DNA from: a virus
Lineage: Duplodnaviria; Heunggongvirae; Uroviricota; Caudoviricetes
Strand: one strand, 5' to 3'
IMG/VR virus record: IMGVR_UViG_2740892258_000005
DNA: 12,002 nt
The notes under the pieces were generated by a model. The model saw nothing but the letters and a program-made list of their open reading frames with translations, was not told the origin of the DNA and ran no database searches. Numbering within the stretch: the first letter of the stretch is position 1; every line of letters begins with the position of its first letter. Position numbers and translations under genes: made by a program. Below are positions 707 through 12,002 of the stretch, piece by piece.

Positions 707-1291
707 TCAGAGTTTAGCGAATTTTTCGAGGGTGCGAATAAGCTGCGTGACGAAGCCATATTCGTTATCGTACCAGGCGACCGTTTTCACCAGTTGTAAA
801 TCGCCCACGGCGGTAATTTCCGTTTGCGTGGCATCAAACACCGAACCGAAATGGCTGCCAATGATATCGGAAGAGACTATTTCTTCATCAGTATAACCAA
901 ATGACTCGTTATTGTTTGTCGCCTTTTTAAGCGCGTTGTTCACCTCTTCGGCAGTCACTTTCTTTCCGAGAATCGACACCAGTTCAGTGACCGAACCTGT
1001 TTTCACCGGCACGCGTTGCGCATGACCTTTCAGTTTGCCGCTCAGTTCCGGGATCACCAGACCAATGGCTTTTGCCGCCCCCGTAGTGTGGGGAATGATA
1101 TTTTCTGCCGCTGCGCGTGAAGCACGTAAATCTTTACCACGTGGGCCATCCACCAGTGACTGGGTGCCGGTATAGGCATGAATGGTTGTCATCGTGCCGA
1201 CTTCTATCCCGAAACTGTGATGCGCCGCGCGATAAATGCACTCTATCTTGTGCGATAAATGGCATCCACGCGGCGTTTCATTATTTGAAAA
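707..1291 (-). pseudogene. gapC: Glyceraldehyde-3-phosphate dehydrogenase (gapC-type) remnant: C-terminal ~60% only, N-terminal part missing
   Basis: The 707..1192 ORF translates to GAPDH C-terminal domain sequence (..[49 protein letters not shown]..). The same frame upstream (1193-1291) still shows weak GAPDH similarity ([14 protein letters not shown]....C aligning to the SNASCTTNC active-site region) and then hits a stop at 1313-1315. There is no Rossmann-fold N-terminal domain and no credible start; homology ends where the invertase gene begins. Confidence 0.8.
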
Positions 1292-1295
1292 AGAA

Positions 1296-1868
1296 TTACA
1301 TTTCAGGTTGCGTTATGACAGTCCCAACAGGGTGATAGCGGTAGATCGTTGACAGTCCAATATCATAGATAATTGCCAGCCGCTTTCTGTCATACCCTTT
1401 CTGGAGCAATCTTGCGATCTGCTCATGCTGCTCCTTCGTCAGTTTCGGGCGACGTCCTCCAACTCTTCCTTGTGCTCGCGCAGCAGCCAGTCCTGCCAGC
1501 GTGCGCTCAACTATCAGTTCACGCTCCATTTCTGCCAGTGCACCCATCATATGAAAAAAGAACCTTCCCATCGGAGTGCTGGTATCGATTGAATCCGTCA
1601 GACTGCGAAAATTGACACCTTTTGCGCGTAGCTCTTCTGTGAGAGCAATGAGGTGTTTCATTCTTCTACCCAACCGATCCAGCTTCCAGACCACCAATGT
1701 ATCCCCTCTTTTAAGGCACTTTAAAGCGCGTTTCAGGCCTGGTCGTTCCGACTTGGTTCCGCTCATTTTGTCCTCAAAAATCTGTTCACATCCTGCGCAC
1801 ATTAATGCATTGCGTTGCAAATCTGTGTTTTGGTCATTTGTTGACACACGTATGTAGCCAATCAGCAT
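1296..1868 (-). CDS. pin: Serine recombinase, DNA invertase of the Hin/Gin/Cin/Pin family
   Basis: 190-aa product from ATG at 1868: [97 protein letters not shown].., near-identical in its motifs to Gin/Pin (catalytic Ser in [10 protein letters not shown]-terminal helix-turn-helix). GGAG-type RBS upstream. The ORF track's 5' extension back to 1982 is read-through of the inverted repeat, not the real N-terminus. Confidence 0.92.
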
Positions 1869-1922
1869 TAAAAATACTCCCTTTTGAGTGGTTAAAGTAC
1901 TGAGATAATGTGGGGAGGATTT

Positions 1923-1948
1923 GAGAGATAAACGTTGGTTTGGGGGAA
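1923..1948. promoter_or_regulatory. Candidate left crossover site for the invertase (hix/gix-like 26-bp site)
   Basis: Bottom strand reads TTCCCCCAAACC AA CGTTTATCTCTC. The inner half-site plus the AA core is identical to the right site and resembles hix/gix half-sites as I recall them (TTCTTGAAAACC AA.. / TTCCTGTAAACC GA..). The core dinucleotide sits exactly at the outer edge of the inverted repeat. Confidence 0.5.
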
Positions 1949-1990
1949 GGCTCTGCATTGCCTGTTGGTGTACCGGTTCCATGGCCCACC
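1935..1990. repeat. Inverted repeat, left arm (56 bp, 56/56 identical to the reverse complement of 3409-3464)
   Basis: Base-by-base comparison: ttggtttgggggaaggctctgcattgcctgttggtgtaccggttccatggcccacc equals the reverse complement of 3409-3464. A second block, 1988-2046, matches the reverse complement of 3266-3324 perfectly, with a decaying extension to about 2069/3243. Confidence 0.95.
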
Positions 1991-2326
1991 CTCCGTCTTC
2001 CTGATTTACGCGGTGAGTTTATCCGTGGATGGGACGACGGGCGCAAGATTGACGAGGGGCGTAAGTTGCTTTCATGGCAGAAAGGTACACTGGTCGGCGG
2101 TCATGACGATAACGATTCTTCGCTGGATATCTCGTACATGAGTAACGGAAATAATATTGACTATGGCGGCGATAAGGTGTTTGCGGGGAATTACCGTAGC
2201 GATTATTTGTGGTACGCAATTCTGGGTGGAACAAACAGTCGCGCAAAAGCCGAATTAAACGGAGCATTCTTTAACATAACCCGCCCCCGCAATATCGCGT
2301 TTAACTATATCGTGAGGGCGGCGTGA
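1940..2326 (+). CDS. Alternative tail-fiber C-terminal (variable) cassette; no own start or promoter, expressed only after inversion
   Basis: The frame encodes (L)GEGSALPVGVPVPWPT-LRLPDLRGEFIRGWDDGRKIDEGRKLL...NIAFNYIVRAA with TGA at 2324-2326. Its first ~35 residues are shared with the active fiber gene and the C-terminus ends with the same NYIVRA motif as the active copy (..ALNYIVRAV). The listed start at 1940 is a TTG inside the repeat, not a real initiation codon. Confidence 0.75.
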   Translation: MGEGSALPVGVPVPWPTLRLPDLRGEFIRGWDDGRKIDEGRKLLSWQKGTLVGGHDDNDSSLDISYMSNGNNIDYGGDKVFAGNYRSDYLWYAILGGTNSRAKAELNGAFFNITRPRNIAFNYIVRAA

Positions 2327-2332
2327 TACCGT

Positions 2333-2947
2333 TCAGCTGGCAAGTGCCAGTGGCGCTTCCGGCCAGCTGATTTCAGGTGCCGTGCTGATATCCAGTGCGT
2401 TCAGCTCGTCGATATAATCCAGCACGGCGTTCAGTTTTGCCGTTTCTTCTGGTGTCAGACTGCGACCTGCCCGCAGTTTGAGGTTGATAAGATCGACGGA
2501 CGCCATCGCCTGTTTCACCCGTTGCTGGCGTTGCTGTCTGGCAACCTCCAGTTCTGCGGCTCGCTGCCGTTCAGTATCGGTTACCCACGCCTCACCGTTC
2601 CAGGTATCCCATGGCGTGGCCGGCTGTTTTGTGGTGGTGTCCGCCGGGTAATCACCCGGTTGGGTAATCAGAACGGGGTTACCGTTCTCCGTGCTGTATA
2701 CCGTCTCGCCGCGGTGATCAGGCACATGCTCCCACCCGTTCAGCGTGGCAGTCCGACAAACCACGTAACCCGAAATTGCCTCCGGCGGTGCATCGGCGCA
2801 CGAATGTGCCGGAGTACCCACCCCAAGGGCGAGATACTCCACAGAGGATGAGGTGTATTCCCGGGTTTCCTCGTCATAGTGATATACAGTGATATCGCCC
2901 GCTACAGTGGCGATACCGTTTTCATCCAGAACTGCAGTGTTACTCAT
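2333..2947 (-). CDS. tfa: Tail fiber assembly protein (Tfa chaperone, lambda Tfa / Mu U family)
   Basis: 204 aa. WEHVPDHRGETVYSTENG..WNGEAWVTDTERQR and the C-terminal ..LDISTAPEISWPEAPL parallel lambda Tfa (WHLVEDHRGKTVYDV..WNGTAWVKDTEAE...VDTSTAPDIEWPAVP) as I recall it. The start ATG (2947-2945) overlaps the fiber stop TAA (2949-2947) by 1 nt, indicating translational coupling. Confidence 0.9.
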   Translation of the reverse strand: MSNTAVLDENGIATVAGDITVYHYDEETREYTSSSVEYLALGVGTPAHSCADAPPEAISGYVVCRTATLNGWEHVPDHRGETVYSTENGNPVLITQPGDYPADTTTKQPATPWDTWNGEAWVTDTERQRAAELEVARQQRQQRVKQAMASVDLINLKLRAGRSLTPEETAKLNAVLDYIDELNALDISTAPEISWPEAPLALAS

Positions 2948-4278
2948 TAAACTGCCCTCACAATGTAATTAAGTGCAATGCTACGGGGTCTGACAGTGAT
3001 ACCCTTCGCATACCCGCTTCTGATAGAGGTCAGAATAGTAGCCTGCATACCATTGTCTGACATTGCCATGACAGGATCGCTGAATGTTGTCCCGTCCGGC
3101 ATTTTAAAGCTGCCCTCACGAAGGTCTGTAATGGAATCTTCATTGTTGAATCCCATGCCGACTATCCCCGAGGTTCCCGTAGTGTCCTGGTTATAATAAT
3201 CCAGCATTGCTGTTCTTAACAGCGTTGCCCCTTGTGCGGACAGCAACTTACGTCCTGTATCAACTTTGCGCCCGTCGTCCCATCCACGGATAAACTCACC
3301 GCGTAAATCAGGAAGACGGAGGGTCGGGTAGACTCTGGCCAGAACAGGATATTGTTCTTTTGTAAAGGCGCGCCCGTCGCACTTTAACCAGCCTGCTGGC
3401 GGTGTGGCGGTGGGCCATGGAACCGGTACACCAACAGGCAATGCAGAGCCTTCCCCCAAACCAAGGTAATTGAGGACATCTTTTATACTGCCCTTAGCGA
3501 TAATCGCGCGACCAATAGCTGTAAGGGTTGCCAGCGCTGCGCGGTCTGCTCCGGTAAAATAAGGCAACCGATCTGCTGCAGTGGCAAGTCCTGCGAGAGC
3601 AGTGAGCGTGGCATCTGCCGGTTGTTTTCCGTTTGCCAGATCGTATGCAGCCTTGACCGCTTTCGGTGTGGCGGCCAGTATTTCAGACGTGCTGTTGATG
3701 GCACTGCTCAGTTGTACGGTGCCTTTTGCCGTCAGCGAGGCAGCAGGCACTCCCGTTATCTGACTCCACGGGTGAGTGTGGCTGACGGGCGCCTTGCCGG
3801 CTGCAAGGTCGTATGCAGCCTTGACCGCCTTCGGCGTGGCAGCCTCAGTTTCTGATTGACTGTCCGTGGCGCTGCTCAGTTGTACGGTGCCTTTTGCCGT
3901 CAGTGAAGCCGCAGGCACTCCCGTTATCTGACTCCACGGGTGAGTGTGGCTGGCAGGCGCCTTGCCGGCTGCCAGGTCGTATGCAGCCTTGACCGCTTTT
4001 GGTGTGGCGGCCAGCGTTTCAGAGGTGCTGTTGGTGGCACTGCTCAGTTGGGTGAACCCCTTAGCTGTCAGTGTCGCGTCCGGGTGGTTACGGGAACGTA
4101 CGTGTTCAGCCAGTGACTGTGCGGCTTCCTCCGTTTTCTTCTTCAGCCATTTCGTCCTGTTTGCCAGTTGCCGGGGGGCTCGATTTGATATCCCGTCTGC
4201 ACCACCCAGAACCGGATCTGATGTCTCCAGTTGATAGATATTTTCTTCCCACTTTTCTGTTTCATTCAGGTTTCCCAT
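2947..4278 (-). CDS. Side tail fiber protein (Stf-like): constant N-terminal part, three fibre repeats, invertible C-terminal receptor-binding part
   Basis: Long - strand ORF with three tandem ~56-aa repeats (LTAKGTVQLSSATxSxSETxAATPKAVKAAYDLAAGKAPxSHTHPWSQITGVPAAS, the phage tail-fibre repeat type seen in lambda Stf) and a C-terminal PVPWP...GWL..G..F....YP.LA..YP..LPDLRG.FIRG motif. The probable start is ATG at 4278 with a GGAG RBS; the track's start at 4284 is TTG. Confidence 0.88.
   Translation of the reverse strand: MGNLNETEKWEENIYQLETSDPVLGGADGISNRAPRQLANRTKWLKKKTEEAAQSLAEHVRSRNHPDATLTAKGFTQLSSATNSTSETLAATPKAVKAAYDLAAGKAPASHTHPWSQITGVPAASLTAKGTVQLSSATDSQSETEAATPKAVKAAYDLAAGKAPVSHTHPWSQITGVPAASLTAKGTVQLSSAINSTSEILAATPKAVKAAYDLANGKQPADATLTALAGLATAADRLPYFTGADRAALATLTAIGRAIIAKGSIKDVLNYLGLGEGSALPVGVPVPWPTATPPAGWLKCDGRAFTKEQYPVLARVYPTLRLPDLRGEFIRGWDDGRKVDTGRKLLSAQGATLLRTAMLDYYNQDTTGTSGIVGMGFNNEDSITDLREGSFKMPDGTTFSDPVMAMSDNGMQATILTSIRSGYAKGITVRPRSIALNYIVRAV
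3409..3464. repeat. Inverted repeat, right arm (56 bp), inside the fiber gene
   Basis: Reverse complement is identical to 1935-1990. It is separated from the second repeat block (3266-3324) by 84 bp (3325-3408) that has no counterpart in the left arm. Confidence 0.95.
3451..3476. promoter_or_regulatory. Candidate right crossover site for the invertase (hix/gix-like)
   Basis: Top strand reads TTCCCCCAAACC AA GGTAATTGAGGA; compare my recollection of hixL TTCTTGAAAACC AA GGTTTTTGATAA and gix TTCCTGTAAACC GA GGTTTTGGATAA. The AA core at 3463-3464 lies at the repeat boundary. Confidence 0.5.
3610..4077. repeat. Tandem direct repeats, period 168 bp, about 2.8 copies, inside the fiber gene
   Basis: For example ggcactcccgttatctgactccacgggtgagtgtggctg occurs at 3744 and again at 3912. 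The repeats encode the three ~56-aa fibre repeats. Confidence 0.8.
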
Positions 4279-4280
4279 AA

Positions 4281-4859
4281 TCAACTGCTCCCGTGGTTAT
4301 AACTGCCATCATGGATGGCGGTATTGTTATAGCGAATGGCCACAGACTGATACTCCAGGCTGGCCAGATGGCAGCGGGCCGGTGCAAATGCAGCCAGCGT
4401 CTGACGCAGCATCGCGGCCTGATCGTTAGTAATGGGCTGTTTCAGAATAACGCGATAAACTGCCCAGGCGGCTGCATCTCCATGAACAAACAGTCCGTTA
4501 TAGCTGCGATTGCCGTCGTAACTGAGACGACCTGTGCCTTCAATCAGATCCACTTCACCAAAGCCAAAACGGCGGATAACTTCCCGGATTGACCACGGCG
4601 TCCCTTTATACCGGTGCAGTTCGATGGCTGCTTTTATAAGCATGCGGCGAACATCGTCCGATTCCGCCAGCTCCCAGCCATCGCCAGACAGTGAGAACTG
4701 CTCGCCCAGCCATGGCAGCGCGGAACTGTCGACGATATCGACGAGAAAGACCATCAGTACGCTCAGGTCGATGTTATCCAGCCGTCCTGCCAGTCTTCCC
4801 AGCGTCCTGAGACTGATATCACCCTCAAGCGGTGGCGGGAGTTGTAATGGCTCAGTCAT
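4281..4859 (-). CDS. Baseplate/tail protein, P2 gpI-like (Mu gp48-like)
   Basis: ..LPWLGEQFSLSGDGWELAESDDVRRMLIKAAIELHRYKGTPWSIREVIRRFGF.. follows the gpI pattern (LPWLAWAFSVDRW..KGT..AIRRV). The probable start is ATG at 4859 (GGAG upstream) rather than the GTG at 4871. The stop overlaps the fiber start region. Confidence 0.8.
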   Translation of the reverse strand: MTEPLQLPPPLEGDISLRTLGRLAGRLDNIDLSVLMVFLVDIVDSSALPWLGEQFSLSGDGWELAESDDVRRMLIKAAIELHRYKGTPWSIREVIRRFGFGEVDLIEGTGRLSYDGNRSYNGLFVHGDAAAWAVYRVILKQPITNDQAAMLRQTLAAFAPARCHLASLEYQSVAIRYNNTAIHDGSYNHGSS

Positions 4860-5955
4860 CAGACACTCCACTCATGTTAAGTGTGATCGCCGTACAGTTT
4901 GCCCATTCGTTTTCTGCCACCACCCTCAGTGCCGGTGTCACCAGTTCAACCTGGTACACCCCGGAAACGGACAATGCACTGATAATCTGGCTGGGGACAA
5001 TATCACGCCCCAGCGTGGCGGCACGTGATGCCACCCAGTTCTGTATGGCGCTGTTAGCGGCATCTTTTACAGACCTGGCATCCTGATCACGATAGATCGT
5101 AATCCTGGCTTCAATGGTGTAATCCACCTTCACTGGTGTTTTAGCCCGCACTGTATCAGTGAGTGGCCTGACTTTCTCATCAGAGCAGAAACTCTCTACC
5201 AGCGTGAGAACACCGCCGTCCGGCAGACCGGTACTGAGCAGCGGATACAGATCTACGGTCCCGGGAACCGGGGAAAGCACAGCAACATCGACAATGTTGG
5301 GATGGGCCTGCATGGCATGAAAGCGGTATGCGCCACGGCTTCCGGCATTGGTGAATGACTCCGGGGCCAGCCTGATACGCTCCCGGAGCCTGTCATCGTC
5401 TTCCTGTTCTGAACCGCCGGAACTGGCCGTCAGATTGCTCACCAGCAGGTCGACGTTATCAATCTCATCGAGTAACTGACTGACCTGCGCAGGTTGCCAG
5501 CCGTTACCAGCGGTACCGGGTTCGGTACAGGTGGACGTGACATTGACCAGCAGCAATCCGGCCTTCAGTACCACATCTGTATCGGTGGCAAAAATAACGC
5601 TGTCGGAAGCGCTGACGCGGGTGCCTGCCGGGATCAGCACATCAATGGCCAGTGCCTCATCTACGGAGAACTGGAGCGTGGTAGTGGCAGGCTGCGCGGC
5701 AAGACGGTATACACCGACCAGTTCACCGAGGTAATCAATCATCGGCTCACGGGCAAAGGCGACCAGATTCTGCTTTGCTGCCTCCTGTACCGCAACCCTG
5801 ACCAGCATTTCGCGATAGGCCCACAGATCAATCAGCAGACGCTCTGCCTGTGCCGGGTACAGCGTTTTGCCGGTATCCGCTTCATACTTCGCAATCATTT
5901 CTGCCGTGATTTTGTCGGCATCGCGTTCAATAAAATCGGGTTCTGTCAGCGCCAT
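4852..5955 (-). CDS. Baseplate J-like protein (P2 gpJ / Mu gp47 family)
   Basis: 367 aa. The central and C-terminal region (..GSRGAYRFHAMQAHPNIVDVAVLSP.., ..RLAPESFTNAG.., ..LGRDIVPSQIISALSVSGVYQVEL..) is collinear with P2 gpJ as recalled. ATG with GGAG RBS. Overlaps the neighbouring genes by 8-10 nt. Confidence 0.85.
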   Translation of the reverse strand: MALTEPDFIERDADKITAEMIAKYEADTGKTLYPAQAERLLIDLWAYREMLVRVAVQEAAKQNLVAFAREPMIDYLGELVGVYRLAAQPATTTLQFSVDEALAIDVLIPAGTRVSASDSVIFATDTDVVLKAGLLLVNVTSTCTEPGTAGNGWQPAQVSQLLDEIDNVDLLVSNLTASSGGSEQEDDDRLRERIRLAPESFTNAGSRGAYRFHAMQAHPNIVDVAVLSPVPGTVDLYPLLSTGLPDGGVLTLVESFCSDEKVRPLTDTVRAKTPVKVDYTIEARITIYRDQDARSVKDAANSAIQNWVASRAATLGRDIVPSQIISALSVSGVYQVELVTPALRVVAENEWANCTAITLNMSGVSDD

Positions 5956-6293
5956 AGCAGCTCCTGAGTCCGGGTCTGTCCGTCTGAGCCTTTCCAGCTC
6001 ACCCGGAGCGTAAGATGTTCGCCGTCGACGGCGGGTTTAACTGACATAAGCTGGCAGCGGGGCTCCCAGCGCCGGATGGCATCGACGGATTCGCGAACCA
6101 CATGCGGAATGGCCCGGTCGACAGGCCAGTCGATATAAAGGTGCAGATTGCTGCCGAACTCCGGGCGATGCGGGTCGCTGCCGCGGGGAGTCCGCAGGAT
6201 GATTTGGATGGACTGCCGGATATCATCCAGCCCCCTGACGATTTCGCCGGAAGCCTGCAGAGCTGGTTGCCAGAATACTGAGGTCGTTTTCAT
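5946..6293 (-). CDS. Baseplate wedge protein, GPW/gp25 family (P2 gpW-like)
   Basis: 115 aa; SIQIILRTPRGSDPHRPEFGSNLHLYID...AIRRWEPRCQL matches the gpW/gp25 signature (..DILRTPVGSR..RDYGS....WEPRV). Confidence 0.85.
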   Translation of the reverse strand: MKTTSVFWQPALQASGEIVRGLDDIRQSIQIILRTPRGSDPHRPEFGSNLHLYIDWPVDRAIPHVVRESVDAIRRWEPRCQLMSVKPAVDGEHLTLRVSWKGSDGQTRTQELLWR

Positions 6294-6349
6294 GGAGGCA
6301 GTATTGCCCCCGGGAAGTAAGCGCCGATATTAAAGGCGTTTAAGAAGGT

Positions 6350-6877
6350 TCAATGGGAATGGTGATTAGAGTTCTGACCATCGGCAAATATGTCACCCGT
6401 TGCATGGGCGCTTCCGTTGATTTCCAGATCACCGTTGAGTGTCGCGTTGCCGTTGATTGTGGTAACTCCCGTGAGGTCAATGCTTTTCCCTTCCAGTGAG
6501 ATATCGGCGGCAACCTCCACCACGATACGCTCAATACCTCCTCTGACCGTCAGCGTATGGGTCGCGCGGTTATAACTGAACTCCGCGCCATCAGCGTACT
6601 TCGTGCCCCGGACGTTTTTATCACTGAACGGTGGTTTATCGACGTCTGAATACACCGCGCCCAGAATAACACCATCCTCGCCGTTGGCATCGAGCAGCAC
6701 CTCAACCTGCTCCCCCACGTCAGGGAGCCAGTAATCTTTGTTATCCTGGGTATTGCGCTGCAGCACGTTAAGCCAGTTTGTGCGCAGGTTATCGCATTCA
6801 GGCAGACGAACGCGGGCCTGAACCCTGTCGGCATCAACGGCACTGACCGTACCGACCTGACGAGTGACACCAGTCAT
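6350..6877 (-). CDS. Baseplate spike/assembly protein, P2 gpV-like
   Basis: 175 aa. The N-terminal OB-fold-like region ..RVQARVRLPECDNLRTNWLNVLQ...WLPDVGEQVEVL.. parallels P2 gpV (..RCRVQTGG..TDWLQWL...WAPSVGEQVLIL). The start ATG overlaps the upstream gene's stop (ATGA). Confidence 0.85.
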   Translation of the reverse strand: MTGVTRQVGTVSAVDADRVQARVRLPECDNLRTNWLNVLQRNTQDNKDYWLPDVGEQVEVLLDANGEDGVILGAVYSDVDKPPFSDKNVRGTKYADGAEFSYNRATHTLTVRGGIERIVVEVAADISLEGKSIDLTGVTTINGNATLNGDLEINGSAHATGDIFADGQNSNHHSH

Positions 6878-8098
6878 TTTTTCTTCTCTCTTATTACTGT
6901 GGACGTGCTGCCGTCCGGTTTATAGATGGTCAGCGTCCGGGTTTTGCCGGTTTTTTTACCTTTCTTCGCCTTGCCCTGTGTGACCGGCCCCCGTGCCACT
7001 TCCAGCTCTGTGGTGTAGCCGCTGTTACGCTCAAACGCATGGAGGGCAGTGGTTATGAGCCATGGCCCGGATAACTGCCCAAAACCCACCAGTTCAATTT
7101 TGTTGCCTGCTGTCAGTTGAGGTGTTCCCGTCAGCGTCAGGGAGCCGTTCTGCTGGTATTCGTTATGTCTGGCCAGTGCTGAATCCGCTTTAATCCGGGC
7201 ACTGCTGGTATTCGTTATGTCTGGCCAGTGCTGAATCCGCTTTAATCCGGGCACTGTCCGGGTCGCTGACGCGGCTGTTAACTTTAAGTGAGTCAGCGCT
7301 GGTAACCTTACCACCTTTGAGCTTTTTGTCGCTTTCACGGGTACCACCATCAGCTTCGTAGACGATCAGTTTTTTACTGCTGCTTTTCTGGTGTTTTACC
7401 TTTGCAGATTTATAGACCCGGTTGATGGTGTCACGCAGGGAAAAGCGGGCCACATCCTGCGGTTTTAACTGCCTGACCGGCTCCTGACTGCGCAGTGTGG
7501 CCAGATGAGAAAAAATCAGCTGGTCACTGACCACTTTCACTGCATAACCATACTCGCTGGCCAGCCGGCGCAGAAAACCCACGTCGGTTTCAGCATACTG
7601 GGTCACCCGGTCGATTCTGATGGACTCAATGCTGCCCACCAGTTTCAGTCGGTGCTTTCTGGCAATCCGCCCCGCAACAGCTGCCAGCGTGGTGTTCTCA
7701 AAACCACGACTGGTTTTAGTCCGCAGGGCACTGTTAACCGAGGTGGCCACCCCACGGATAGAAACAACGGAAGCGGGCGAACTCACTTCGATCTCGTCTA
7801 TAGAGAACGTACCGCAGGACAGCAGCTTCTCGCCCTGATAGCCCATTTTCAGCGTCAGCGTGTCACCCTTGCCCGGATACCATTTATCCAGCCAGCGGCC
7901 ATCGGTGTCGTCCAGCTCCACCTCAATGGTATCGGACTCATTTTTGATGTTATCGCTCCAGGTCACACGGGTGACATAAGGCGCGATATCAGAGGTGATG
8001 TTTTTCTGCAGATACCACAAAGTGAACACCGGTGTCAGCACATCGCTGACGCCGGTTAACGCTGATGTGACTTGCGCAGTGCTGTTTATCTCAGCCAT
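6874..8098 (-). pseudogene. P2 gpD-like (Mu P-like) tail/baseplate hub protein, frameshifted by a 52-bp tandem duplication
   Basis: The two overlapping ORFs 7190..8098 and 6874..7350 both encode the peptide SARIKADSALARHNEYQQ, each from a different copy of the 52-bp repeat. Removing one copy gives a single 390-codon frame whose C-terminus (..GFGQLSGPWLITTALHAFERNSGYTTELEVA..) matches the P2 gpD C-terminus (..WTITKVTHFLNNSGFTTSLELEV..). Confidence 0.8.
7150..7253. repeat. Perfect tandem direct duplication, 2 x 52 bp
   Basis: 7150-7201 and 7202-7253 are both ctgctggtattcgttatgtctggccagtgctgaatccgctttaatccgggca (52/52). The unit length is not a multiple of 3. Confidence 0.95.
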
Positions 8099-8298
8099 GG
8101 GGCAATATCCTCTTCTGTACGGGCTTCTTCAGCCTCAATCACCGGGATCAGTAACAACAGCCCGGAGGGCAGCACCGGCGTGATGGCCACGTGCGGATTG
8201 GCGGCAATAATCCGGGGATAGCCCAGCGGGTCGCCGTAGTACTGCCATGCCAGCGAATCCCAGCGCTCTCCGTCACGGGTAACATGTTCAAGAAACAT
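8086..8298 (-). CDS. Tail protein X-like (P2 gpX family, small LysM-like)
   Basis: 70 aa from ATG at 8298: MFLEHVTRDGERWDSLAWQYYGDPLGY.RIIAANPHVA.TPVLPSGLLLLIP, compared with P2 gpX (..QGDTLDAICVRYYGRTEGVVETVLAANPGLAELGAVLPHGTAVELP). The start overlaps the upstream stop (TGATG). Confidence 0.75.
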   Translation of the reverse strand: MFLEHVTRDGERWDSLAWQYYGDPLGYPRIIAANPHVAITPVLPSGLLLLIPVIEAEEARTEEDIAPWLR

Positions 8299-9182
8299 CA
8301 CACACTCCTCGTCAGTATTCTGGCGGCCATTGCACTTAATCCCGGAGACATGCGGTTGAATGCTGTGCCGGCGGCGTTAAGCTGCCCGGAAACGGTATCC
8401 AGAGCACCTGCAATATTTCTTTTGTCCACACCACTCAGCGCAGACTGTGCCTGCTGTACATACGTGACTGCTTCGCTGGCTGTTCTGGCCAGACTGATGG
8501 CATCGGGCATGGATTCAGAGAGTGCGTTAAACGCCGGAACACTTTTCCCCAGAGCCCCGGAGATATTACCCAGTCCGCTCATCAGCCCCGGCACACGGGT
8601 CAGTGCGACAACGGGGTTATCCTTCATTTTCTGTGTCACCCGAACGGCGCTGATAGTGGTCTGGAGTACAGACTGCGCCTGTTTCGCATAGTTGACGCCG
8701 TTGCGGATGAACTGCGCCACCCCTGAAGGTGAAGGTATGGCACCGGAGACCGCCCCGACACCCGGGAGCTTCGTGCGTATTGCCGGTGGTTGCAGAGTAT
8801 TTTTCGGGTCACCGGTGTATTCCCGGAGAGACACGGTGGCACTGACAGCCAGCACGTTGCCGGTACTGTCAGTCTGCTCGCTGGTTGCAGTCACATCGGT
8901 AATCACGAACCAGCCGCGATAGTCACCGTTGCCGAAGACCAGCGCCAGTGCCTGATGGGCTTTCATGGCTGTTCGCAGTCTCGCCAGCTCCACATCGGGT
9001 ACACAATAATGCTGATGGAAAACCAGAGTTATCTGGATTTCGTCCAGCCTGTCGCCGACGAACTGCAGGCCAGGCTTACCCCCGATGCGGGCATGCTCCG
9101 CATAATCGACGCCGAACGTGGCCTCGAAGCCGTCCCAGTAGGTAATCAGCTCAAACTCAATATCACCCAGTACGGCAAACAT
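8298..9182 (-). CDS. Tail protein with P2 gpU-like N-terminal domain (Mu N-like position in the module)
   Basis: 294 aa. The N-terminal ~120 aa (FAVLGDIEFEL...GKPGLQFVGDRLDEIQITLVF....LARLRTAMKAHQALALVFGNGDYRGWFVITDV....SATVSLREY) fit the gpU pattern. The C-terminal Ala/Ser/Gly-rich half is unassigned. The start ATG overlaps the tape measure stop (TGATG). Confidence 0.6.
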   Translation of the reverse strand: MFAVLGDIEFELITYWDGFEATFGVDYAEHARIGGKPGLQFVGDRLDEIQITLVFHQHYCVPDVELARLRTAMKAHQALALVFGNGDYRGWFVITDVTATSEQTDSTGNVLAVSATVSLREYTGDPKNTLQPPAIRTKLPGVGAVSGAIPSPSGVAQFIRNGVNYAKQAQSVLQTTISAVRVTQKMKDNPVVALTRVPGLMSGLGNISGALGKSVPAFNALSESMPDAISLARTASEAVTYVQQAQSALSGVDKRNIAGALDTVSGQLNAAGTAFNRMSPGLSAMAARILTRSV

Positions 9183-10258
9183 CAGCGGTACTCCTTACGT
9201 TGTTTCTGAGCCAGCAGACGCTCCAGCATTTTTTCCAGCTCATGCAGACTCATATTCAGAGCACCAGTCAGTCCTGCAGGCGCTGTGGTTTCCCTGCCAT
9301 TGAGGAAAAACTGAGGATTAAAGCTGACCTGGATACCACCAGACGTTCCACCGCCGGTTGCAGCTGCACCACGGCCTGAATATCCGGCAGCCATGATTTC
9401 AGGCGAGGGGATACGGGGAACATCCGGTGTCATCTCATTTGCCAGACGTTGCCCTGGTAAAATCGATGTCCGGGTGGAGAGCGGGATAGCGGGCATGGAA
9501 GACAAACTATTGATTACGGCTCCGATCGCATTTTTAGCAGACGACATAAACCCGTTGATATCGGGCAACGGCATACTGAAGCGAACACCTGAAGTGTTAT
9601 CCCGTATTTCTGGCCCCTGAATGCTCACGGGCATTCTGGGGAGCAGTTCACTGGCCATTCGCTGCCCGGCCAGAGCTGCAAGCGGAGTGGTCCGCTGCAG
9701 GCCAATGGCGGCCCCCTGCGCGATATTGTCACCAAAGCCCATAAACACGCGGCTCGGCGAATGAATACCCAGCTTTTCACTGAACCAGCCACTGATGCTG
9801 TCACCCATTCCGGTTACACTGGATTTGAGCGACTCCCATTTGTTTTTGATACCGTTAATCAGACCGTCGACAAGATGGCCACCGAAGTCGGTGAACTTTG
9901 CCGGCAGATCAACACCAAGATATTTCAGCGCAGCTGCAAAGGCTTTATAGAGCAGACCTGCCGGCGACCAGTTAATCAGCAGCTTACCAGTTCCCGCGAT
10001 ACCGCCGTTAAAGGCTTCCTGAATGTCAGCCCAGCACTGTTTAAACCAGCTACTGATGCTGTCACCCATTCCGGTTACACTGGATTTGAGCGACCCCCAT
10101 TTGTTTTTGATACCGTTAATCAGACCGTCGATAAGATGGCCACCGAAGTCGGTGAACTTTGCCGGCAGAGCAACGCCGAAATATTTCAGCGCAGCCGCAA
10201 AGGCTTTATAGAGCAGGCCTGCCGGCGACCAGTTAATCAGTAACTTACCAATTCCCAC
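9182..10258 (-). CDS. Tail tape measure protein, C-terminal segment (separate frame from the N-terminal segment)
   Basis: 357 aa in an open frame whose only candidate start is GTG at 10258 with no RBS. Contains two ~87-aa tandem repeats (GKLLINWSPAGLLYKAFAAALKY.GV.LPAKFTDFGGHL.DGLINGIKNKW.SLKSSVTGMGDSIS.WF) and a Gly/Ser/Pro-rich C-terminal half typical of tape measure proteins. Confidence 0.7.
   Translation of the reverse strand: MGIGKLLINWSPAGLLYKAFAAALKYFGVALPAKFTDFGGHLIDGLINGIKNKWGSLKSSVTGMGDSISSWFKQCWADIQEAFNGGIAGTGKLLINWSPAGLLYKAFAAALKYLGVDLPAKFTDFGGHLVDGLINGIKNKWESLKSSVTGMGDSISGWFSEKLGIHSPSRVFMGFGDNIAQGAAIGLQRTTPLAALAGQRMASELLPRMPVSIQGPEIRDNTSGVRFSMPLPDINGFMSSAKNAIGAVINSLSSMPAIPLSTRTSILPGQRLANEMTPDVPRIPSPEIMAAGYSGRGAAATGGGTSGGIQVSFNPQFFLNGRETTAPAGLTGALNMSLHELEKMLERLLAQKQRKEYR
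9779..10251. repeat. Tandem direct repeat, period 261 bp, two copies (~95% identical over ~210 bp)
   Basis: 9782-9990 and 10043-10251 align with only scattered substitutions. 261 bp equals 87 codons, so the duplication is in frame. Confidence 0.85.
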
Positions 10259-11912
10259 AATGCCGCCGTGCGACGGCGCTAAATCCGGTCACCAGCCAGC
10301 GGAGCTTACCGCCTTGCCCCAGTGCGAGCGACAGACGAAGCCAGTTGGCCCGAAGTAAAACAGCATTTTTCCAGACACTTACAAAGGGGGAAATAAGGAG
10401 ATTCAGCCCCAGTTTGAGACCAACAGTCGCTATCTTAATCGCAAGGAGCGCACTGATGAGCTTAAAAGCCCCACTGACAAATTGCGGGTGAGTCGCTACC
10501 CAGTGTTTTGCCCCCTGAATGAGTGGAAGCAGTTCCTGAGTCAAAGAAATAAAAGATGGAGCTAATTGATCGCCCAGCGTAATTGCCAGATCGCGACTGC
10601 TGACCATAAGTGTTTTAGTGGCTTCAAGGGGAGATTTCAGCCGCTGATCATAAGCACTGGCAAGCAAATCGTTATCCGCAGCCCTGAGAGCACCGGCACG
10701 GATCTCTCGATATCTGTCCATGTTGGCCAGCATCGGGCGGATAAATGCCATGACCTGCATATCCGCGAACATATCGCCCAGACCAAAGTTTTTCGCCAGA
10801 GCCTGAAGTGCCTCATCTCTTGCCGTATCATTCTTTATTTTCATGGCTGATTTGAAGCCGGCCAGCGCTTCGGGGCTTTTGGCATTGAGGTAACGTTCTA
10901 TAACACTCAACATCCCTTCAATCGGAGAGATCCCCGCAGCTTTATAACTCGCAATAGATCCCTGCAAATCAATACCCAGATCAGCAAACTGTTTCTGAGT
11001 ATCGCGGGCAAAAATTTTGGTAAGAAAGTTTTTAAAATTATTGGCTGCTTCGTCGGTGGAACCTGCACCGATTTTTGCTATCTGGAGACTGGCCCCGATT
11101 TCAGCAACAGCCTCTTTTCCACTGGCAATACCCGCCATCATTGGGGCCAGGGACTGCATCCACTTGACCTGATCCGGGATTTCAAATGACCCCTGGTCAC
11201 CGGCATAAGCCATAATATTCTGAACGGCACCAAAATCTCTGGCCGCACCTTTCAGGGAGTTTTGCCAGACTGCGGCCACTTTTGCCCAGTCCTGAGCAGA
11301 CGTGCGTGTTGCCGTTGCCGCGCGGGCAATATCCGGCATCAGAAAACCGATATCTGACACATTATCAATATTGTCGCTGATGAGTGAACCCACCGCCTCC
11401 TGCAGCTCATCCTGATACTGATTGTATTTAAGCGCCCAGCCTTTTATCTGTCCGGCAAGTGCATCCCGCGTTTTATTGTCATATTTTGCGGTGATCGACA
11501 TATCAATCATTTTGTCCTGAAAAGACATGGACTGCTGAACGGCAGGGGAAACCGTATGATAAACAGTCTGTGCCATGCCATACGCTTCAATCCCCTGACC
11601 ATACAGCGCCATGCGGTTAGCTTTCAGCGCATCACTGGTAGCGGATGCCGCTGACAGACGGCGCTGCTGGCGCTCAATTTGCTCCATGGTGCGGCTTACC
11701 CGCAGCAGCTCGCTGTTGAGATGCTGCATCCGGGAAGAACCCAGTTGACCATAACGTTCTGTTGCACGGGTTAAAGCGTTCTGACGTTCCTGCAGGCGGC
11801 GTGAGGTATCGCTCAGGGAATCAAGCGCACGGCGGGTACCGCTCATTGCAGAACGGAATGTGCTGCCAATCATCCCGCCGATAACAACGCCGACTGAAAA
11901 CTGTCCCGACAT
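10245..11912 (-). CDS. Tail tape measure protein, N-terminal segment
   Basis: 555 aa; ATG at 11912 with a strong GGAGG RBS 9 nt upstream. The N-terminal region is predicted alpha-helical and charged (..RRLQERQNALTRATERYGQL..EQIERQQRRL..), the core is tape-measure-like, and the C-terminal part is hydrophobic (..FKLISALLAIKIATVGLKLGLNLLISPFVSVW..). It ends at TAA 10245-10247, 14 nt inside the next ORF. Confidence 0.8.
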   Translation of the reverse strand: MSGQFSVGVVIGGMIGSTFRSAMSGTRRALDSLSDTSRRLQERQNALTRATERYGQLGSSRMQHLNSELLRVSRTMEQIERQQRRLSAASATSDALKANRMALYGQGIEAYGMAQTVYHTVSPAVQQSMSFQDKMIDMSITAKYDNKTRDALAGQIKGWALKYNQYQDELQEAVGSLISDNIDNVSDIGFLMPDIARAATATRTSAQDWAKVAAVWQNSLKGAARDFGAVQNIMAYAGDQGSFEIPDQVKWMQSLAPMMAGIASGKEAVAEIGASLQIAKIGAGSTDEAANNFKNFLTKIFARDTQKQFADLGIDLQGSIASYKAAGISPIEGMLSVIERYLNAKSPEALAGFKSAMKIKNDTARDEALQALAKNFGLGDMFADMQVMAFIRPMLANMDRYREIRAGALRAADNDLLASAYDQRLKSPLEATKTLMVSSRDLAITLGDQLAPSFISLTQELLPLIQGAKHWVATHPQFVSGAFKLISALLAIKIATVGLKLGLNLLISPFVSVWKNAVLLRANWLRLSLALGQGGKLRWLVTGFSAVARRHCGNW

Positions 11913-12002
11913 AGTGGTTAACCTCCGGGGAAGGTGAAAAGACGTGAGGGGATAACGCAGAACAGCCGCTACTGGCGGCTGTCTGTACTATGATTTGTCG
12001 CC

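Follow-up and report, generated by a model that had tools for sequence, protein, structure and literature searches.

The stretch of DNA analysed here (the window) is 12,002 bp long and constitutes the entire contig CVOH01000149.1 of GCA_001245225.1, the short-read draft assembly of Escherichia coli K1 strain A192PP (PMC5054322). The parent strain A192 was assembled in the same laboratory from MiSeq 2x151 Nextera XT reads with Velvet/VelvetOptimiser, yielding 627 contigs, and from this paper of the same group we infer the assembler that lies behind the A192PP draft. At one end the window carries host DNA from the E. coli aldA–gapC region (1–1223), followed by prophage genes on the minus strand. 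Read by increasing position, these specify a Gin/Hin-type recombinase (1296–1868), a fibre assembly protein (2333–2947), a tail fibre (2947–4284), gpI (4281–4871; PF09684), gpJ (4852–5955; PF04865), gpW (5946–6293; PF04965), gpV (6350–6877; PF04717), the gpD-type gene that is the subject of this analysis, gpX (8086–8301; PF05489), a gpU-like protein (8298–9182; PF06995) and a tape-measure protein (9182–11912). According to the Pfam matches in the sequence, the minus-strand gene order is thus gpU-like, gpX, gpD, gpV, gpW, gpJ and gpI, and the tail-baseplate genes likewise form a single contiguous block in the annotation of phage PhiKM. The corresponding tail genes of P2 lie in two separate clusters.

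PhiKM (Escherichia phage PhiKM, PQ738613.1, genus Bcepmuvirus) is the closest named phage, with 97.8% identity over 97% of positions 4300–9700, and its genome contains transposase, GemA, Mor/C-like and Gam-like genes. Moreover, the host gene at the prophage end was different in all genomes examined (L002, L003, L017–L026 and L036–L040), placing the prophage at different insertion sites: it is flanked by gapC/aldA in the window (1218–1223), by a partial cysteine hydrolase gene/ysgA in strain N61 and by fdrA in strain TUM14759. Because the host flank differs from genome to genome and the closest phage is a transposase-bearing Bcepmuvirus, the element is a BcepMu-like transposable prophage, of which the window holds the tail-side end only, the transposase end lying outside it and being seen in PhiKM. 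In the window, only a few bases separate the prophage from the C-terminal half of gapC (707–1192, minus strand), upstream of which it is inserted. In several genomes that lack a prophage at this position (for example at 9498–10486 of L007), gapC is likewise called as two genes, for an N-terminal half of 163 aa and a C-terminal half of 161 aa, so that the gapC split predates the insertion.

The reading frame of the gpD-type gene is broken in the window. Its N-terminal part is a 302-aa ORF (7190–8098, minus strand) that encodes residues 1–299 of the intact protein, up to the stretch ...SARIKADSALARHNEYQQ, and then ends in CPD and a TAA stop codon at 7190–7192. A mechanical downstream ORF of 158 aa (6874–7350, minus strand) follows the true gpD frame in 6874–7203 only (residues 282–390); its codons 1–51 are out of the gpD frame, which it rejoins at an 18-aa peptide that is also encoded by the upstream ORF.

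The break coincides with a perfect tandem duplication. Direct string comparison revealed that positions 7150–7201 and 7202–7253 are identical base for base (52/52), and Tandem Repeats Finder reported a period of 52 at 7150–7256 with 2.1 copies, 100% matches and a score of 214. The chance of such an adjacent 52/52 match arising within 12 kb is negligible (approximately 12,000 x 4^-52). In the direction of the gene, the copy at 7150–7201 is the downstream one, which the C-terminal remnant translates in the proper gpD frame; the N-terminal ORF does so for the copy at 7202–7253. The duplication creates a novel junction between positions 7201 and 7202, where AATCCGGGCA abuts CTGCTGGTATTC, and the two-copy allele can be diagnosed by the string GCTTTAATCCGGGCACTGCTGGTATTCGTTATG. 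The period-52 identity extends over 107 bp, comprising the two copies and a CTG at 7254–7256 that represents either a 3-bp microhomology or a chance extension, the probability of an accidental border match being estimated at approximately 5%.

Deletion of one copy in silico yielded a single 390-aa ORF on the minus strand. This collapsed protein matches Pfam PF05954 (Phage_GPD) over residues 126–341 (E = 3.6e-10; 40 bits against a cut-off of 30.1) and aligns over residues 33–351 with the R2 pyocin protein 6u5h_C (E = 8e-18), and the RefSeq name given to the gene in the listed matching genomes is 'phage late control D family protein'. The domain match, the structural relative and the tail-gene neighbourhood all liken it to the gpD-type baseplate hubs (PF05954; PDB 6u5h chain C), with the difference that the ORF of this contig is broken at residue 299 instead of being continuous, which costs it residues 300–351, the last block aligned to 6u5h_C. 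The underlying locus is a common, already annotated and ordinary gpD-type hub gene of an E. coli prophage. A previous sequence-only reading of this DNA had described two adjacent identical 52-bp copies, a gene of the P2 gpD type frame-broken by them, an identical 18-aa peptide encoded by both ORFs and a 390-codon gene restored by deletion of one copy, and these descriptions are borne out by the repeat detection and string comparison, by the curated Pfam cut-off and RefSeq name, by the translations and by the in silico collapse, respectively. It had also let the upstream ORF continue for 9 codons past the first copy, whereas the stop is in fact reached after 3 codons (9 nucleotides).

The two-copy allele was then sought in other genomes. 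The gpD-type gene was matched in 634 of 5,426 complete E. coli genomes and, among the matches listed, every span measured 1,173 bp, which is the one-copy length. A 48-mer centred on the junction (7180–7227), for which a one-copy genome leaves each half below the 28-base word of megablast, found zero matches in the 5,426 complete E. coli genomes, while a control 60-mer over the junction matched its two halves in 616 genomes, indicating that such short queries work. Likewise, a junction 33-mer had zero matches in the GTDB species genomes, the JGI metagenomes and IMG/VR, and among all fetched loci the junction was absent except from copies of CVOH01000149.1, which is also the only sequence for which the truncated 302-aa product is recorded. 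The relatives examined in detail (L002, L003, L005, L017–L022, L024–L026 and L028–L040) each have one continuous gpD of 384–390 aa, and none of them carries a repeat tract at the gpD site. The comparison with orthologous prophages that the sequence-only reading had called for thus turned up no relative with the two-copy arrangement. The allele occurs in one assembly only and is missing from sequences that are otherwise identical.

These otherwise identical sequences disclosed that the duplication is not the sole anomaly of the contig. Comparison of the prophage part of the window (1218–12002) with two independent genomes (L036 and L039) yielded 0 mismatches over 10,727 compared bases, and by the same count three further ones (L037, L038 and L040) differ from the window by 1 mismatch each. 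All five of these (L036–L040) are independent long contigs with the same fibre orientation as the window, and in all of them gpD measures 390 aa and the tape-measure protein 983 aa. The fibre protein look-up did not bring up the draft of the parent strain A192. Against L036 and L039, the contig nevertheless shows three structural changes: a gain of 52 bp in gpD, a loss of 221 bp in the tape-measure gene and a loss of 87 bp at an inverted-repeat boundary.

The 221-bp deletion splits the tape-measure gene (9182–11912, minus strand) into ORFs of 555 aa and 358 aa, with a blunt junction between positions 10269 and 10270; the deletion breaks the frame (221 = 3x73+2), and the gene is otherwise base for base the intact gene of strain N61 (2,952 bp), which encodes 983 aa and is likewise intact in five other genomes. 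The 87-bp stretch is missing at 1988–1990, where an ACC microhomology lies between the inverted-repeat arms 1932–1990 and 1985–2073, and it is present in 6 of the 6 comparators (L002, which is N61, and L036–L040). Its loss reduces the alternative ORF for the fibre C-terminus from 151 aa to 122 aa. Both of these losses adjoin repeats, whereas no repeat in the window adjoins the 52-bp duplication.

Apart from the lesions, window positions 3827–12002 recur with 100% identity in a metagenome scaffold (L005), whose gpD is intact. At 7787–7996 this scaffold contains a gap of 100 N with the same 55-bp sequence on each side, so that stripping of the N would leave a perfect 55-bp tandem duplication. 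The gap sits inside the very tape-measure stretch that is deleted from the window. The tape-measure gene of PhiKM (11521–14386 of L045) is in turn annotated as 'disrupted by sequencing gap', and two other short-read assemblies (L005 and PhiKM) hence also break in the tape-measure region.

Read-derived evidence was drawn from Logan, in which public sequencing runs have been assembled at k=31, and the contig breaks to be expected there were derived from the window's own repeated 31-mers. Contig ERR1442928_63, which carries the strain-specific junction between the prophage and gapC, ends at window position 1964 as predicted, and the same contig was found in 10 samples, matched by this junction. 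The one-copy gpD contig in Logan, seen among the longest contigs listed and not assigned to the insertion-junction lineage, measures 5,846 bp, again as predicted. A real duplication would force a contig end at 7179 and so a cut product of 101 aa, and this product was found in no Logan contig, the 10 samples with the junction contig possibly including the A192PP run. The look-up was able to return cut products, as it retrieved an unrelated contig of 357 bp: JASXAG010000123.1, the sole 101-aa match, which was discarded as a short contig of another assembly with one SNP and one copy. The 555-aa tape-measure fragment produced by the 221-bp deletion, whose stretch is free of repeated 31-mers, was likewise found in no Logan contig.

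Taken together, these data suggest that the 52-bp duplication is probably an error of the deposited draft that the A192PP chromosome itself lacks, its gpD-type hub gene then being intact. Like two other structural oddities of the contig, the duplication is private to one assembly, and we infer the step of the assembly pipeline behind them. Three structural changes alongside zero substitutions relative to L036 and L039 are not normal for neutral decay and are typical of a troubled assembly. Mechanistically, the 52 bp might have been doubled if the overlapping ends of two contigs were joined while their overlap was left unmerged or, in a looser form of the same proposal, if contigs overlapping by less than k were joined without N where coverage had a gap. 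The window resembles such an unmerged join in that its perfect direct repeat is some tens of bases long, is private to one draft and is accompanied by other join-like anomalies and by zero substitutions, and L005 provides an explicit case of duplicated sequence at a contig gap. It differs in that its two copies have no N between them and in that the duplication does not lie at a repeat boundary. An assembly or sequencing artefact had been named as an alternative in the sequence-only reading, and the privacy of the allele, the accompanying anomalies and the Logan results now make it the most likely explanation.

Two more specific versions of an assembly-related or mosaic origin were considered and abandoned. 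The number 52 would equal the k-1 overlap of Velvet contigs at k = 53, but this was set aside as the graph normally merges k-1 overlaps. A boundary between mosaic prophage variants at the duplication was rejected, since the divergence of TUM14759 begins near window position 6990 and not at 7150–7256.

Several features do speak against an artefact or for a real mutation. A plain de Bruijn contig consists of read-derived k-mers only, so that an unmodified one would mean that reads contained the junction k-mers, and an artefact needs a later step of joining, gap-closing or N-stripping; the N count of the deposited 12,002-bp window is zero. The duplication is also away from any repeat, and its CTG border is what a slipped-strand duplication leaves. 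A very recent private mutation, in which slipped-strand replication or template switching, either in the A192/A192PP lineage or in the subclone that was sequenced, duplicated 52 bp and threw gpD out of frame, therefore keeps some weight as a case of prophage decay, even if we consider it rather unlikely. The hub protein would then end at residue 299, and loss of the 6u5h_C-aligned block would be inactivating. Selection on prophage genes in the host is weak. If real, the duplication is an ordinary pseudogenising mutation. Against this explanation stand the confinement of the allele to a single draft assembly, the improbability of neutral decay leaving three structural changes and 0 substitutions over 10,727 bases versus two genomes, and the lack of the forced contig break in every Logan assembly despite the 10 samples that carry the insertion-junction contig.

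A mixed case, with a genuine duplication in A192PP but an artefactual tape-measure deletion, so that measurable collapse would give rise to a subpopulation with a working tail, appears highly improbable to us. If true, a transposable prophage would have been knocked out by accident, and reversibly, in a model strain that is in wide use for neonatal meningitis.

The sequence-only reading had gone further in proposing an unstable, revertible OFF state, namely a contingency or phase-variation device that keeps the tail module off and frequently collapses to ON. Short tandem duplications can be lost through RecA-independent slippage, and collapse of one copy does restore the frame. The likeness to repeat-mediated phase variation lies in a unit that is not a multiple of 3, a shifted frame and its restoration by one-copy loss. 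The difference is that phase-variable loci carry conserved short-unit tracts that vary among strains, whereas here there is one doubling of a long 52-bp unit, in just two copies and in one assembly, and no repeat tract varies among the relatives. The junction was found in 0 of the 634 gene-matching complete E. coli genomes and in no other collection, and Logan was equally silent. Moreover, the module is not otherwise intact: its tape-measure gene is frame-broken too by the 221-bp deletion, so that collapse of the duplication would not restore the tail, and should both lesions be artefacts, nothing would be left to switch. Loss of the tail would presumably not protect the lysogen from lysis either. 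We therefore regard a functional switch as extremely unlikely, and this part of the sequence-only reading does not stand.

Finally, a working split hub made from the two ORFs, or rescue by ribosomal frameshifting, is scarcely credible: the ORFs do overlap and share the 18-aa peptide, but inspection of the sequence revealed no convincing Shine-Dalgarno ahead of the ATG at 7350, the downstream ORF starts with 51 codons outside the gpD frame and was skipped by the gene caller of the sequence collection, and the gene is continuous in every relative examined in detail.

Whether the duplication is an assembly error or a real mutation, its biological weight is small, as both explanations concern an ordinary hub gene of the gpD type from a prophage that is common in E. 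coli. Its practical value is that of a data-quality warning. One 12-kb contig of the A192PP draft contains three structural differences from otherwise identical prophages, two of which make false-looking pseudogenes, and this draft served as the reference in a transposon-insertion sequencing study (PMC5847654). Calls of a "pseudogene", a "defective prophage" or an "unstable switch" from such drafts need read-level confirmation first.

Some further variation was observed in the fibre and tape-measure regions. An invertible tail-fibre segment (1932–3467), bounded by 59-nt inverted repeats that are 98% complementary, adjoins the Gin/Hin-type recombinase gene (1296–1868, minus strand), and positions 1985–3467 have the orientation opposite to that in N61 (L002 5155–3672). 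The fibre proteins of the relatives measure 443, 530, 540 or 543 aa depending on allele and orientation. Within the tail-fibre gene, three stretches match the Pfam Phage_fiber_2 repeat, and a 168-bp repeat at 3634–4050 is present in 2.5 copies with 85% matches; identity to several relatives falls at this repeat. The tape-measure gene in turn contains in-frame repeats of 261 bp (87 aa) that are 93% alike (9783–10269 in the window; whole genes at 11257–14208 in L002 and 9898–12588 in L003). The length difference between the intact tape-measure genes of N61 (2,952 bp) and TUM14759 (2,691 bp) is exactly 261 bp, or one repeat unit, and could give rise to tails of differing length.
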